Both the position numbers and the translations under genes were made by a program. A stretch of 60,634 nt of DNA from an uncultured archaeon (GTDB lineage Archaea > Asgardarchaeota > Lokiarchaeia > Sigyniarchaeales > SOKP01). The notes below the pieces were generated by a model. The model was given only the letters and a program-made list of their open reading frames with translations, was not told the origin of the DNA and ran no database searches. The stretch covers positions 1 through 60,634 of the forward strand of contig CAYLZE010000018.1 in the NCBI GenBank assembly GCA_964388035.1. Direction: 5' to 3'. Shown here piece by piece: positions 15,251 to 31,815 of this stretch (its first letter is position 1; each line of letters begins with the position of its first letter).

Positions 15251-15748
15251 ATGAATGTAATAAATTTTGAATTTAGAAATGAAGTGATTAAACATAATGC
15301 ATCCTTGAGTTTCTGTTTTCAGTGTTCTACCTGTAGTGGGGCATGTCCCGTGGCCTTATTGACGAATGGAAAATATAATCCCCGAAAAATCATTGAAGAG
15401 GCAATATTAGGGCTACAAGAAAAATTAATAGAAGAACAAGATCCCAGTATCTGGTTATGCTCCACGTGTCAAAAGTGCGTGGAATTATGTCCTCAGAAAG
15501 TAGAATTAACCGAGATCTTTACTTTAATAAAAAATAAATGCTTCGAGACGGGGCGCATACCGGAAGCTTTTTTATTACAAGGCAAAGCAATTCTGGAAAA
15601 TGGAATTGCGATTCCTTATTCAAAATCAATCCTTTCACGTCGTGAAAAATTTGGGCTTCCTTTAATTCATAATGCTCCTATTGAAGAGTTGAGTAAAATT
15701 TTCAAGCAGACTAATTTTGAACAAAATTTATCAAGAGGGGATAAATAA
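15251..15748 (+). CDS. hdrC: Heterodisulfide reductase subunit C
   Basis: CFQCSTCSGACP and WLCSTCQKCVELCP (two [4Fe-4S]), YNPRKII. Confidence 0.93.
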   Translation: MNVINFEFRNEVIKHNASLSFCFQCSTCSGACPVALLTNGKYNPRKIIEEAILGLQEKLIEEQDPSIWLCSTCQKCVELCPQKVELTEIFTLIKNKCFETGRIPEAFLLQGKAILENGIAIPYSKSILSRREKFGLPLIHNAPIEELSKIFKQTNFEQNLSRGDK

Positions 15749-15751
15749 AAG

Positions 15752-16624
15752 ATGACGTATGATTTATTTTTAGGCTGTGTAATTCCCGCAAGACTTCCTT
15801 TTTTGGAAGCATCTTCGAGAAAGGTGTTTGAAACACTCGGAATAGATTTGAAGGAGATGGAAGGATGCAGTTGTTGTCCAGATCCTACTGGCATCGAACA
15901 GATTGATCATAAAACGTGGTTAGCCTTGGGTGCGCGAAACCTTAGTTTATCGAAAAATGGTGGTCTTATTTCATTTTGTTCGGGTTGTGTTGAAACGCTA
16001 AAAGGAGTGAATTATTGGATGCAAAAAGATCCCGCTATCAAAGAAGAAGTAAATGCAATCTTGAAGAAGGTGGGGAAAAAATATGATGGGTCGACAAGAG
16101 TAAAGCATTTTGCAGAAGTGATTTATGAGAATCTGGACCTCGTGAAGGAAAAGGTGTCAAATCCTTTGGATGGGTTTAAAGTGGCGGTTCATTATGGGTG
16201 CCATTATCTTCGACCTTCTGAAATCATAGATTGGGATGATCCTTTTGAACCTAATACGATAGATGAAATCGTGCGGGTGCTGGGAGCGGAATCCATTCCA
16301 TATGATTTGAAATTGGAATGTTGTGGAAATCCCGTGGATAAATCGGATAAAGATCTTTCCTTATTAATGATTGAAAACAAGTTGAAAGCAATTCAGGAAT
16401 CGGGAGCAAATTGCGTGACCTTAGTTTGCCCTGCTTGTTATCAACAATTTGATTTCAATCAAGGTGAATTGAATAAGAAGAAAAACACCGCGTTTCAGTT
16501 GCCCATTTTATATCTTTCTGAGCTGATGGCCTTAGCCTTTGGGTTTGATCCTGGTGAGATTGGTTTGAATTTCCATCGGGTAAGACCTACTTCATTATTC
16601 GAAGAAATCGGCTTCAAGAAGTAG
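15752..16624 (+). CDS. hdrB: Heterodisulfide reductase subunit B
   Basis: Two CCG-type domains: FLGC...SCCPD...FCSGC and HYGCH...ECCG...CPACYQQFD. Confidence 0.94.
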   Translation: MTYDLFLGCVIPARLPFLEASSRKVFETLGIDLKEMEGCSCCPDPTGIEQIDHKTWLALGARNLSLSKNGGLISFCSGCVETLKGVNYWMQKDPAIKEEVNAILKKVGKKYDGSTRVKHFAEVIYENLDLVKEKVSNPLDGFKVAVHYGCHYLRPSEIIDWDDPFEPNTIDEIVRVLGAESIPYDLKLECCGNPVDKSDKDLSLLMIENKLKAIQESGANCVTLVCPACYQQFDFNQGELNKKKNTAFQLPILYLSELMALAFGFDPGEIGLNFHRVRPTSLFEEIGFKK

Positions 16625-16659
16625 AATTTTAATACAATTCAATAGGAGGTAAATGACTA

Positions 16660-29798: not shown

Positions 29799-30630
29799 CG
29801 TGTATGTGCCCGTGTTAACGAAAATAGTATCTATAACTTCAGAAAATGAATTGAATGATATCAAAACATTTGAGTTGGTTTTTAAAAAGGAGGAAGATCT
29901 CAAGAGTTTTAATTACGTACCCGGACAGTTTGCCGAATTGAGTCTTTTAGGAACGGGAGAATGTCCAATAGGAATCGCCTCTTCTCCAACCGAAGAGGGT
30001 TCAATTAAATTCACGATTAAGAAAATGGGTACGGTAACCCAAGCAATTCATGATTGCGAATCAGGTAACATATTGGGCATAAGAGGACCCTTGGGGAATG
30101 GATGGCCCGTGGAGAAAATGAAAGGCAAGAACATAACAATTATTGGAGGAGGGTTTGCTTTCTCCACCCTTCGTTCCCTCATATGGTACATTTTAGACGA
30201 GAAAAATAGAGCTTCCTATGAGGAGTTGACCGTAATTTATGGGAATCGAAATTCTGGAGAAGTATTATACAAGCAAGATTTGGCACAATGGGAAAAACGA
30301 GACGATATTAACTTGATCTTGACTATAGATCAGGAAGAAAAGGGATGGACAAAAAAGGTGGGATATGTCGCACCCGTGGTCAAGGAAGTGGCTCCTTCGC
30401 CCGAGAATTCCGTAGCTATCGTGTGTGGCCCACCTATAATGATAAAAACAACGATAACCGTGCTAGAGGAATTAAGATTCAAAGATGATCAAATTCTAAA
30501 TTCCTTAGAAATGAGAATGAAATGTGGAATTGGTAAGTGCGGACGATGCAATATTGGAAATAAATTCGTGTGTGTTGATGGTCCGGTCTTTTCCTTAGCC
30601 GAATTAAAGAAAATACCGAACGAATATTAA
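29791..30630 (+). CDS. FlxA/AsrB/HydG-like FAD/NAD(P)H-binding [2Fe-2S] oxidoreductase
   Basis: PGQFAEL, RGPLGNGW, GGG, VCGPPIM and MKCGIGKCGRC...VCVDGPVF. Confidence 0.92.
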   Translation: MLSVYVPVLTKIVSITSENELNDIKTFELVFKKEEDLKSFNYVPGQFAELSLLGTGECPIGIASSPTEEGSIKFTIKKMGTVTQAIHDCESGNILGIRGPLGNGWPVEKMKGKNITIIGGGFAFSTLRSLIWYILDEKNRASYEELTVIYGNRNSGEVLYKQDLAQWEKRDDINLILTIDQEEKGWTKKVGYVAPVVKEVAPSPENSVAIVCGPPIMIKTTITVLEELRFKDDQILNSLEMRMKCGIGKCGRCNIGNKFVCVDGPVFSLAELKKIPNEY

Positions 30631-30660
30631 ATAAATTAAAAATAAAGTGATTGAAAAAAA

Positions 30661-31815
30661 ATGAAAGAAGACTTGGAAAATATACTACCGGAAGAAATCC
30701 GGCCCAAATCTTTTGAAGATTTGATCACAGATGTTCATGAAAAAGGATTGTGTGGGGAATGTGGTGGTTGTGTAAGTTTTTGCTCTGCCTCGGATATCAA
30801 AGCAATCGAATTGTCCGAAAAGGGCCCTCCAAAATATGCAAATAAAGAGAATTGCTTGCATTGCGGGATATGCTATTTGGTGTGTCCCCAAACTCACGTA
30901 TTAAACGAAGAGTTAAATCGAAAATATAAATATAAACCACCGATTGGAAATTGGAAAAAAGTCGTATCAAGTCAGGCGATCTTTAAAGAAATCAAGGCGG
31001 AAGCTACCGATGGGGGAATTGTTACTGCAATATTGCTATATCTATTAGACCATGACTTGATAAATGGCGCCATTGTTAGCAAGAAAAATGGTCCTTTTAG
31101 TAGAGTTCCTTTTTTTGCAACTTCAAAAGAAGAGTTATTAGAGGCGGCAGGATCTCATTATGATTTTACCAGCCAAGTTGTAGAACTCGAAAAATATAAT
31201 ACCTTCATCCCAACAATCACAAAATTAAAATCTATTCCTCATTCAGATATGATGAACATTGCAGTGGTTGGCACCCCTTGTCAAATTCATTCCATACGAA
31301 AAATGCAAGAGCTTAGCATTCTTCCTGCTCATGTAATTAAATACACCTTGGGACTATTTTGTAATTTAAATTTTTCTTTTGACAATGAAGATCGAAGAAA
31401 AATGGAAGAAAAGTTCCATTTTACATTTGACAACGTGGAAAAAATGAATATAAAAGAACAAGTTATTCTAAAACTCAAAGATAGGCAAGAGGTAAAAATA
31501 GATTTTAACGAACTAAACGAGTTTGTAAGACCTGCTTGTTTTGGGTGTCCTGACTTTTCGAACGTCTATGCAGATCTATCTTTTGGCGGATTAGGATCTC
31601 GAGATAACTACACGACTGCTTTAATACGAACAGATAAAGGAGAAGAAATATATAATAATGCAGTACGCGAGAGATATATTCTGGAAAAGGTGGAAATGAA
31701 TAATTCCATAAAAAAATCTGAGATGTTAGCCAAAATTATCAGTTTTAGTCAGAGGAAAAAGGAAAGAGCCGAAAAAACCTTAAGAGAAACTGCTTCTCTT
31801 CCCACTTTAACGTAA
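30661..31815 (+). CDS. Coenzyme F420 hydrogenase/dehydrogenase beta subunit (FrhB/FpoF-like) with N-terminal ferredoxin
   Basis: CGECGGCVSFC, CLHCGICYLVCP, DGGIVT, VGTPCQ, LGLFC and CFGCPDF...ADLSFGGLG. Confidence 0.9.
   Translation: MKEDLENILPEEIRPKSFEDLITDVHEKGLCGECGGCVSFCSASDIKAIELSEKGPPKYANKENCLHCGICYLVCPQTHVLNEELNRKYKYKPPIGNWKKVVSSQAIFKEIKAEATDGGIVTAILLYLLDHDLINGAIVSKKNGPFSRVPFFATSKEELLEAAGSHYDFTSQVVELEKYNTFIPTITKLKSIPHSDMMNIAVVGTPCQIHSIRKMQELSILPAHVIKYTLGLFCNLNFSFDNEDRRKMEEKFHFTFDNVEKMNIKEQVILKLKDRQEVKIDFNELNEFVRPACFGCPDFSNVYADLSFGGLGSRDNYTTALIRTDKGEEIYNNAVRERYILEKVEMNNSIKKSEMLAKIISFSQRKKERAEKTLRETASLPTLT

Follow-up and report, generated by a model that had tools for sequence, protein, structure and literature searches.

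A Flx-Hdr gene cluster with three double HdrA modules and a terminal frhB in an uncultured lokiarchaeon

Introduction

Which electron carriers are connected by a heterodisulfide reductase (Hdr) gene cluster that encodes three HdrA-MvhD modules and no hydrogenase, and how far does it depart from known systems? The question is raised by a 60,634-nucleotide (nt) stretch of DNA (the window; contig CAYLZE010000018.1 of assembly GCA_964388035.1) from an uncultured archaeon of the class Lokiarchaeia (Asgardarchaeota), in which a preliminary description had singled out a run of genes from hdrC to frhB as an NADH- and coenzyme F420-linked bifurcation complex. No archaea known are more closely related to eukaryotes than the Asgard archaea, and in syntrophy models of eukaryote origin the way they balance ferredoxin, NAD(P)H, and F420 takes a central place. 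The cluster is a tractable target, as genes in the same order are listed for the cultured strain MK-D1. It bears on the role of doubled and tripled HdrA and on the disulfide that serves Hdr in organisms without coenzyme M and coenzyme B (CoM/CoB) or DsrC.

FlxABCD-HdrABC systems are known from anaerobic bacteria, Desulfovibrio among them (Pereira 2011 and Ramos 2015, cited in PMC4287179 and PMC5861303), and MK-D1 ('Ca. Prometheoarchaeum syntrophicum') and other Asgard archaea also possess them (Imachi 2020, PMC7015854). The supplementary table of the latter study lists DSAG12_03717-03726 in the order FloxA, FloxB, FloxC (FrhB-related), FloxD (MvhD), HdrA, MvhD, HdrA, HdrA, HdrB, and HdrC. The role ascribed to the Flox proteins is oxidation of NAD(P)H, with transfer of the electrons to HdrABC, and a pairing of lokiarchaeal Hdr with Flx in place of Mvh was raised as a speculation by Orsi et al. 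In the Elp-Hdr complex of Methanothermobacter marburgensis (structures 8RVU/8RVV/8RVY), activity measurements and cryo-electron microscopy revealed that an FdhB-type F420H2 module and an MvhD homologue can replace the hydrogenase on HdrABC, the former oxidising F420H2 and the latter relaying the electrons to HdrA for bifurcation (Nomura 2025, PMC12350162).

Organization of the cluster

The cluster is a lineage variant of a known system, marked by a third HdrA-MvhD module, frhB, MvhD proteins with a winged helix, and a linked 8-cysteine protein; the third module, the appended FrhB, and the 8-cysteine protein are its new details. We favour, with somewhat better than even confidence, the reading that it encodes a cytoplasmic, hydrogenase-free, flavin-based bifurcating (in reverse, confurcating) heterodisulfide reductase of the Flx(Flox)-Hdr kind, with NAD(P)H and F420H2 probably acting as electron donors.

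Window coordinates are used throughout, and genes and domains were called from a listing of open reading frames (ORFs) combined with Pfam. This revealed 13 co-directional genes occupying exactly 15251-31815 (+), with no opposing gene of note, so that the earlier account of 13 tightly packed or overlapping genes was borne out. The genes are arranged as hdrC, hdrB, three modules of double HdrA plus MvhD, flxC, flxB, flxA, and frhB (Table 1), with intergenic gaps of no more than 35 nt and four junctions overlapping by 4-8 nt. Two start codons were revised: that of the short mvhD to 27221, where an ATGA overlap with the preceding stop codon lies downstream of a GGAGG site, and that of flxC to 27693, which gives a protein of 340 amino acids (aa), equal in length to its relatives.

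The block looks like one transcription unit, given its tight spacing, the AT-rich region before hdrC, the T-runs 3' of the frhB stop codon, and the separate AT-rich leader of the next gene, cinA. The 310-nt region ahead of hdrC has a G+C content of about 21%. Its alignment (14941-15250) with a same-genus genome showed conservation of a 20-nt TATA-like block (AGTAATTTTTATAAATAATG) and of three GATCA-containing motifs, and its inverted repeats are low-complexity AT repeats. An Rfam search of 12000-34500 gave no match.

Table 1. Coordinates of the cluster genes and of the elements flanking them
Feature	Coordinates	Strand	Evidence and remarks
Small 8-cysteine protein, 89 aa	14297..14566	-	Translation; divergent from hdrC
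Second, paralogous 8-cysteine protein	14626..14940	-	Likely start at MCNYC methionine, near 14886
AT-rich divergent region, putative promoter, 310 nt	14941..15250	.	TATA-like block ~15120-15140; repeated GATC-containing motifs
hdrC, 165 aa	15251..15748	+	Pfam Fer4_8; two CxxCxxCxxxC [4Fe-4S] motifs
hdrB, 290 aa	15752..16624	+	Pfam CCG, E 8.4e-24; two complete C..CC..CxxC patterns (disulfide-reducing site)
Module 1 HdrA N-part, 433 aa	16660..17961	+	FAD domain with Cys194/197 pair; inserted ferredoxin domain
Module 1 HdrA C-part, 564 aa	17964..19658	+	N-terminal Fe-S domain, second FAD domain, C-terminal ferredoxin domain
Module 1 MvhD + ArsR/SmtB-type winged helix, 256 aa (g5)	19655..20425	+	Pfam FlpD 1e-53, HTH_5 1.1e-7
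Module 2 fused double ('type II') HdrA, 1004 aa	20429..23443	+	Extra module; Pfam, motifs, tree
Module 2 MvhD + winged helix, 258 aa	23440..24216	+	Pfam; 68% identical to module 1 copy
Module 3 fused double HdrA, 1003 aa	24213..27224	+	Pfam, motifs; 65% identical to module 2
Module 3 short MvhD (FlxD equivalent), 155 aa (g9)	27221..27688	+	Pfam FlpD 2.1e-51
flxC-like FdhB/ElpB-like Fe-S protein, 340 aa (g10)	27693..28715	+	PDB 7bkb_E 9.1e-27, 8rvu_E 1.5e-19
flxB-like sulfhydrogenase beta-type Fe-S protein, 353 aa (g11)	28737..29798	+	Pfam Fer4_22; PDB 9nez_B 3.5e-50
flxA-like FAD/NAD(P)-binding protein with [2Fe-2S] site, 279 aa	29791..30630	+	FAD_binding_6, NAD_binding_1, DHODB_Fe-S_bind; PDB 9nez_C 7.6e-48
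frhB, 384 aa (g13)	30661..31815	+	Two N-terminal [4Fe-4S] motifs; FrhB_N and FrhB_C above Pfam cut-offs; putative F420H2/F420 site
T-rich tract after last stop codon	31816..31870	+	Sequence; likely archaeal terminator

Flx and FrhB input modules

FlxB and FlxA match, along their entire length, the beta and gamma subunits of Pyrococcus furiosus sulfhydrogenase I, which make up the NAD(P)H-side (diaphorase) half of that hydrogenase. FlxC contains two [4Fe-4S] motifs. Its PDB matches, to F420-dependent FdhB and to ElpB, cover the C-terminal Fe-S part, and its N-terminal part gave a weak Pfam FrhB_FdhB_C match, barely at the cut-off, in keeping with the name that the MK-D1 table uses, 'FrhB-related protein FloxC'. 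The MvhD homologue g9 lies between hdrA and flxC, as expected of FlxD, and the gene order is that of bacterial loci; the assignment to Flx-Hdr made in the preliminary description thus held.

The F420-binding subunit of that description proved to be a bona fide FrhB-family protein by Pfam and PDB matches. Its best PDB matches were 8RJA_E (3.1e-46) and 8RIU_B (6.3e-33), followed by FrhB, Fsr, FdhB, and ElpB; 8RJA and 8RIU represent F420-reductase subunits that an ethane oxidiser attaches to its CO2-forming enzymes (PMC11493965). For another MK-D1 protein, Greening 2024 reported a misannotated [FeFe] hydrogenase; this possibility was rejected for the present gene, which has clear Pfam FrhB domains in a genome where the [FeFe] hydrogenase domain (PF02906) is absent.

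A check for F420 biosynthesis genes, which the preliminary description had proposed, identified CofH (469.7 bits; cut-off, 374.1) with a CofG-like neighbour, CofD, and two CofE genes, together with the F420-dependent Mtd (356.6 bits). On gene presence, the organism would be an F420-making host. In the same genome search, Fno (63.9 vs 149.8 bits) and Mer fell under their curated cut-offs.

HdrB and the double HdrA units

All ten CCG cysteines are intact in HdrB, here and in every relative sampled. The presence of three double-flavin HdrA units, as described at the outset, was supported at the motif level in all six halves, with the refinement that the first unit is encoded by two genes in different frames. 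Frameshift, selenocysteine, assembly error, and read-through were ruled out as explanations of this split, because the second ORF, in its different frame, has its own GGAGG site and because relatives and a Bathyarchaeia locus share the split.

Alignment of the 1004-aa HdrA with the solved HdrA of Methanothermococcus thermolithotrophicus (5ODC) revealed three segments: residues 16-361 correspond to HdrA 155-501 (the flavin adenine dinucleotide (FAD) domain and inserted ferredoxin domain), residues 445-617 to HdrA 2-174 (the N-terminal Fe-S domain), and residues 821-996 to HdrA 469-647 (the end of the FAD domain together with the ferredoxin domain at the C-terminus). Motif searches and a six-half alignment showed that GxGxxG is retained in every half, as are the FAD domain's four-cysteine cluster and residues equivalent to E356 and K409, the last two being markers of bifurcation-competent HdrA (PMC12054007). 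The NDCxxC pair (Cys194/197) and the inserted two-cluster ferredoxin domain occur in the N-halves only, and the N-terminal cysteine domain and the C-terminal two-cluster ferredoxin domain in the C-halves only. The locus therefore does not encode the single four-domain HdrA that forms a symmetric homodimer; the domains are shared out between two fused or adjacent halves. Such complementary domain loss amounts to a built-in heterodimer according to Chadwick 2022 (PMC9012536), and the pattern has been named type II HdrA, of which none had been studied biochemically (PMC12054007, 2025). Since the Cys194/197 pair and the inserted ferredoxin domain are in the N-half and the complementary domains in the C-half, each double HdrA unit can, judging from its sequence, serve as its own asymmetric 'dimer'.

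MvhD connectors and their winged helix

The AlphaFold2 (AF2) model of the long-form MvhD (19655-20425) reached a predicted local distance difference test (pLDDT) score of 89.6. In Foldseek searches, its MvhD domain superposed on MvhD (5ODC_D), ElpC (8RVU_F), and 7BKB_F with template modelling (TM) scores of 0.86-0.89 and 50-55% identity, and its tail matched the ArsR/SmtB repressors CzrA, SmtB, and HlyU. We considered the tail as a DsrC-like thiol carrier and rejected this role, given the modelled ArsR-type winged-helix fold and the lack of a conserved cysteine.

The fusion is widespread. The tail was detected in 113 of the 161 genomes of the class that we surveyed, and the same architecture occurs in Dehalococcoidales, Thermoplasmata, Bathyarchaeia, and WOR-3 loci; a language-model search, taken as a lead only, suggests that MvhD combined with HTH_5 is common in Thermodesulfobacteriota.

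Distribution in relatives and age of the third module

To place the cluster among its relatives, the 161-genome survey was complemented by 25 fetched loci of the class, whose families are designated f1, f3, f4, and f7. A FlxB homologue was found in 116 of the 161 genomes, and the common form among the fetched loci was hdrC-hdrB-hdrA(N)-hdrA(C)-mvhD (with winged helix)-double hdrA-mvhD-flxC-flxB-flxA, that is, two modules of which the first is nearly always split. Terminal frhB was present in 17 of the 20 f1 and f4 loci that include the downstream region, and absent from family f7 and from two closed family f3 genomes; some loci contain a second FrhB-like gene after hdrB. The modules thus vary independently in relatives, in which HdrA modules number two or three and FrhB-like genes range from none to two.

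A species-genome scan outside Asgard archaea revealed a one-HdrA form, hdrC-hdrB-hdrA-mvhD-flxC-flxB-flxA, in Syntrophobacteraceae, Desulfobacterales, and Bacillota, and a two-module form with double HdrA and winged-helix MvhD in Dehalococcoidales, Thermoplasmata, WOR-3, and Bathyarchaeia. The Bathyarchaeia locus combines a split first HdrA with frhB after hdrB. Some lokiarchaeial genomes (L047, G141:C11; L056, G006:C3) also contain, as an additional locus, a classical one-HdrA cluster, hdrC-hdrB-hdrA(~660 aa)-mvhD-flxC-flxB(-flxA).

These patterns reduce the claim of unusualness made in the preliminary description, since Asgard archaea are already known to have the core and it also occurs widely outside them: the two-module form extends across the class, follows the order of the MK-D1 table, and is present outside Asgard archaea. 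That several HdrA units share one HdrBC had been overstated as a peculiarity, since multiple double HdrA per hdrBC pair are the rule for this cluster. The appended F420 subunit is indeed present, but a terminal frhB is usual in families f1 and f4, and the suspicion that the gene might be unlinked in relatives found no support in those loci.

Three-module clusters were detected in five more genomes of three other genera, in which the middle HdrA is 70-73% identical to that of module 2, so that the form is known from at least six genomes and four genera including the present one. In a FastTree topology, read with support values left aside, the split, middle, and last modules formed three clades, with the middle clade sister to the whole last-module clade. 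Because the middle clade branches outside the entire module 3 clade, the third module (module 2) looks like an old duplication that has been patchily retained. An assembly artefact or a recent duplication was rejected, as the paralogues are only 65-68% identical and orthologous three-module clusters exist in the five genomes.

Genome context

The assembly comprises 5.47 Mb in 211 contigs, with 96.7% completeness and 7.3% contamination. Its lokiarchaeial affiliation is consistent with the Ras-family GTPase genes ahead of the cluster, with the synteny shared with the same-genus genome, and with an NCBI homologue of a neighbouring gene that bears the name 'Promethearchaeota archaeon'. MvhA/G, FdhA, mcr, and dsrC were all absent from the contig of the cluster, in line with what had been stated of the cluster (no mvhAG or fdhA) and of the window (no mcr or dsrC). 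Genome-wide, MCR_alpha and DsrC were likewise not found, and neither was ComA; other CoM routes and CoB synthesis were outside the search. With neither MCR_alpha nor ComA detected, the genome offers no sign of CoM-S-S-CoB as the substrate.

The description of the system as hydrogenase-free held for the cluster and its contig but does not extend to the genome, which encodes one [NiFe] hydrogenase and two molybdopterin enzymes. The hydrogenase, the only NiFeSe_Hases match, is located on contig C28, where a fused HdrA-MvhD gene lies immediately before the genes for its small and large subunits; a Mvh-type hydrogenase belonging to the cluster was therefore not identified. Molybdopterin-family genes were confined to contigs C165 and C77, the C77 gene adjoining an mvhD, so the cluster also has no FdhA/ElpA scaffold of its own.

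HdrA-like loci number about 15 in this genome, and four more double HdrA genes are among them; outside the cluster, hdrCB pairs occur at least five times, and FrhB-like genes number nine in all. The triad double hdrA-mvhD-frhB recurs on C28 and C57, and of all the contextual evidence this speaks most strongly for electron flow, in one direction or the other, between FrhB and double HdrA by way of MvhD. These Hdr features are situated at C28:1-4465, C28:39176-43923, C57:8079-18860, C55:14040-18971, and C5:104116-111756, and C55 encodes a 1170-aa double HdrA-MvhD fusion.

The linked 8-cysteine protein

Two tandem genes encoding small 8-cysteine proteins, found nowhere else in the genome, lie directly upstream of hdrC. 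Their cysteine pattern is invariant (C-x2-C-x-C-x5-C-x10/11-CC-x2-C-x8-C) and is followed by a conserved C-terminal beta-sheet; in the AlphaFold model (pLDDT 57.6), the confident part is limited to this three-stranded sheet. One to three copies were present directly upstream of hdrC in all sampled f1 loci with upstream sequence, except those of genus g2, being co-directional in eight loci and divergent in six others and in this window. Neither families f3 and f7 nor any non-Asgard locus sampled contained it; the protein has no Pfam match, and its homologues were restricted to Promethearchaeota. It could be an accessory with metal or redox activity, a regulator, or a thiol substrate that is itself a protein. 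With the known substrates not found and one cysteine-rich protein strictly linked within one family, the disulfide question is narrowed.

Comparison with known systems

Comparison with the MK-D1 Flox cluster showed that its product order equals the two-module core found here and in loci L053 and L054, from which the present cluster differs by the third double HdrA and winged-helix MvhD module and by the terminal frhB. Imachi 2020 contains no discussion of the double HdrA, the split first module, the winged helix, or the stoichiometry. With bacterial Flx-Hdr the cluster shares an NAD(P)H-type FlxA, the Fe-S proteins FlxB and FlxC, an MvhD-like FlxD, and HdrABC, and the order hdrCBA-flxDCBA also occurs in loci L100 and L108-L112 (Syntrophobacteraceae, Desulfobacterales, and Bacillota). 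The bacterial systems have one HdrA of about 650 aa, in contrast to the three double HdrA, two winged-helix MvhD, and frhB observed here. In sulfate reducers, DsrC is the proposed substrate of bacterial Flx-Hdr, whereas DsrC was not found in the present genome.

Elp-Hdr resembles the cluster in combining an FdhB/FrhB-type subunit with an MvhD connector (three MvhD here) and no hydrogenase; g13 and g10 match ElpB (8rvu_E), and g5 matches ElpC. It differs in having a single HdrA dimer, the FdhA-derived scaffold ElpA, and CoM-S-S-CoB, none of which is present here. The type II HdrA systems, namely HdrA3/4 of anaerobic methanotrophic archaea (ANME) and Moorella MetFV-HdrABC-MvhD (PMC9012536, PMC12054007), likewise have two thioredoxin-reductase-type FAD domains per protein, complementary loss of Cys197 and the N-terminal Fe-S domain, E356 and K409 equivalents in both halves, and an association with FrhB/FdhB and MvhD. 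Unlike in ANME HdrA3/4, where the half order is reversed, the Cys197-bearing half comes first here; the cluster also has Flx partners and no dead molybdopterin protein, and its host is not a methane-metabolising organism. The methanogen MvhAGD-HdrABC complex (5ODC) has homologous HdrA, HdrB, HdrC, and MvhD with conserved cofactor sites, but the cluster lacks MvhA/MvhG, its HdrA is doubled and tripled, and mcr, ComA, and DsrC were not found in the genome.

In the literature searched, we found no account of a multi-module architecture with both Flx and FrhB or of its cross-phylum distribution, and none of the third module or the linked 8-cysteine protein.

Proposed mechanism and alternative explanations

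A Flx-Hdr enzyme with an additional F420 input is argued for by the cluster order, which is conserved over the class and beyond, by the intact motifs, and by the Elp-Hdr precedent. In such an enzyme, NAD(P)H would be oxidised at FlxA and F420H2 at FrhB, and Fe-S chains would carry the electrons to MvhD and to HdrA's C-terminal ferredoxin domains, and onward to the bifurcating FAD. One branch would lead through HdrC to HdrB, reducing a disulfide, and ferredoxin would be served at the inserted ferredoxin domains of HdrA. Given potentials of about -500 mV for ferredoxin, about -340 mV for F420, and -145 mV for the heterodisulfide (PMC9012536), this forward reaction should be feasible with a disulfide of the heterodisulfide kind. 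In a fermenting or syntrophic lokiarchaeon, the reverse run could convert reduced ferredoxin and a dithiol to F420H2 or NAD(P)H. The third HdrA-MvhD module, as an old duplicate, might add capacity or a further input/output port.

Several points weigh against this proposal. The support for the function of the cluster is entirely non-biochemical. One hdrBC pair is set against six flavin sites with no obvious stoichiometry, and hdrCB pairs are present at least five more times in the genome. Among relatives, FrhB-like genes and HdrA modules do not rise and fall together in number, so a one-input-per-module rule fails and the pairing of modules to inputs is unsupported. Family f3 genomes, which have the gene order of the MK-D1 table, lack frhB in the cluster, which implies that F420 is not essential to the core, and the FrhB family does not consist of F420 enzymes throughout, as chlorophyll reductase was among the FrhB matches. 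Finally, no candidate disulfide emerged from the 96.7% complete genome, in which mcr, DsrC, and ComA were not found.

Some of these observations would suit a single operon for several enzymes, whose products form two or three separate complexes instead of one multi-input machine, for example Flx-MvhD-HdrAA(module 3)-HdrBC and FrhB-MvhD (winged helix)-HdrAA(module 1 or 2), the latter perhaps with HdrBC/HdrD paralogues from elsewhere. We regard this as possible though doubtful: HdrA module and FrhB-like gene numbers vary independently in relatives, stand-alone hdrAA-mvhD-frhB clusters exist on C28 and C57 of the same genome, and many hdrCB pairs are to spare, but the very tight spacing and translational overlaps run through the whole block, and the order is conserved from Lokiarchaeia to Bathyarchaeia and Dehalococcoidales. 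The occurrence of an NAD(P)H module and an F420 module in one operon, with no canonical Fno at the curated cut-off and no known Hdr substrate pathway found (MCR_alpha, DsrC, and ComA being those searched), could also point to an Nfn-like, ferredoxin-dependent exchanger between the NAD(P) and F420 pools, in which HdrBC would be an electron relay or regulatory and no free disulfide would be turned over. This is unlikely, as HdrB retains all ten CCG cysteines in all relatives sampled and the frhB-less f3 core would be incapable of such an exchange. We consider it least likely that the HdrA-MvhD modules dock a Mvh-type [NiFe] hydrogenase or FdhA-like enzyme from elsewhere, with H2 or formate as the real donor or acceptor. 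On C28, the hydrogenase genes come immediately after a fused HdrA-MvhD gene of their own, the C77 molybdopterin enzyme has its own MvhD, and the cluster carries its own input modules, although one MvhG/MvhA pair and a molybdopterin enzyme beside mvhD do exist in the genome and Imachi 2020 assigned H2 formation in MK-D1 to Mvh-Hdr.

The winged helix raises a different question, namely whether the long MvhD proteins are mainly redox-sensing transcription regulators of the operon and not stoichiometric subunits. Pfam, AF2, and Foldseek agree on the ArsR/SmtB-type fold of the tail, and the promoter region contains GATC-containing repeats in addition to its conserved block: four GATC occur in the 320 nt upstream of hdrC at 21% G+C, against about 0.6 expected from a rough base-frequency estimate, and five other divergent-type loci contain 2-6. 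The GATC/GATCA motifs could be candidate operators for the MvhD winged helix or for the 8-cysteine protein. A mainly regulatory role nevertheless seems quite unlikely, given that the MvhD domain shares 50-55% identity with structural MvhD/ElpC subunits and has retained their cysteines, that the gene lies between hdrA genes with overlapping stop and start codons, and that no specific operator emerged; the roles of regulator and subunit are not exclusive. In the most far-reaching reading, the 13 products would form a megacomplex with up to six bifurcation-competent flavins, a redox hub tying NAD(P)H, F420H2, and ferredoxin to a thiol/disulfide couple specific to the lineage. The 8-cysteine protein would then be that couple (a DsrC-like protein substrate) or a sensor, and the MvhD winged helices would report the redox state to their own promoter. 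We hold this reading to be improbable.

Neighbouring genes

Synteny with the same-genus genome extends over the cluster and its flanks. At 13153-13440 (-), 1.8 kb upstream of hdrC, lies a gene for a 95-aa thioredoxin-like protein containing a CTPC motif; this position is conserved in the same-genus genome only, and the product is conceivable as a protein disulfide. The adjoining gene, at 12568-13047 (-), encodes a V4R-domain protein. Downstream of the cluster, a CinA-domain protein (31984-32481, +) and a B12-binding radical S-adenosylmethionine protein (32834-34303, +) are probably unrelated to it, because they are syntenic only with the same-genus genome. The upstream flank also contains three paralogous Ras/Roc-family small GTPase genes at 10492-11022, 11369-11932, and 13495-14067, all on the minus strand.

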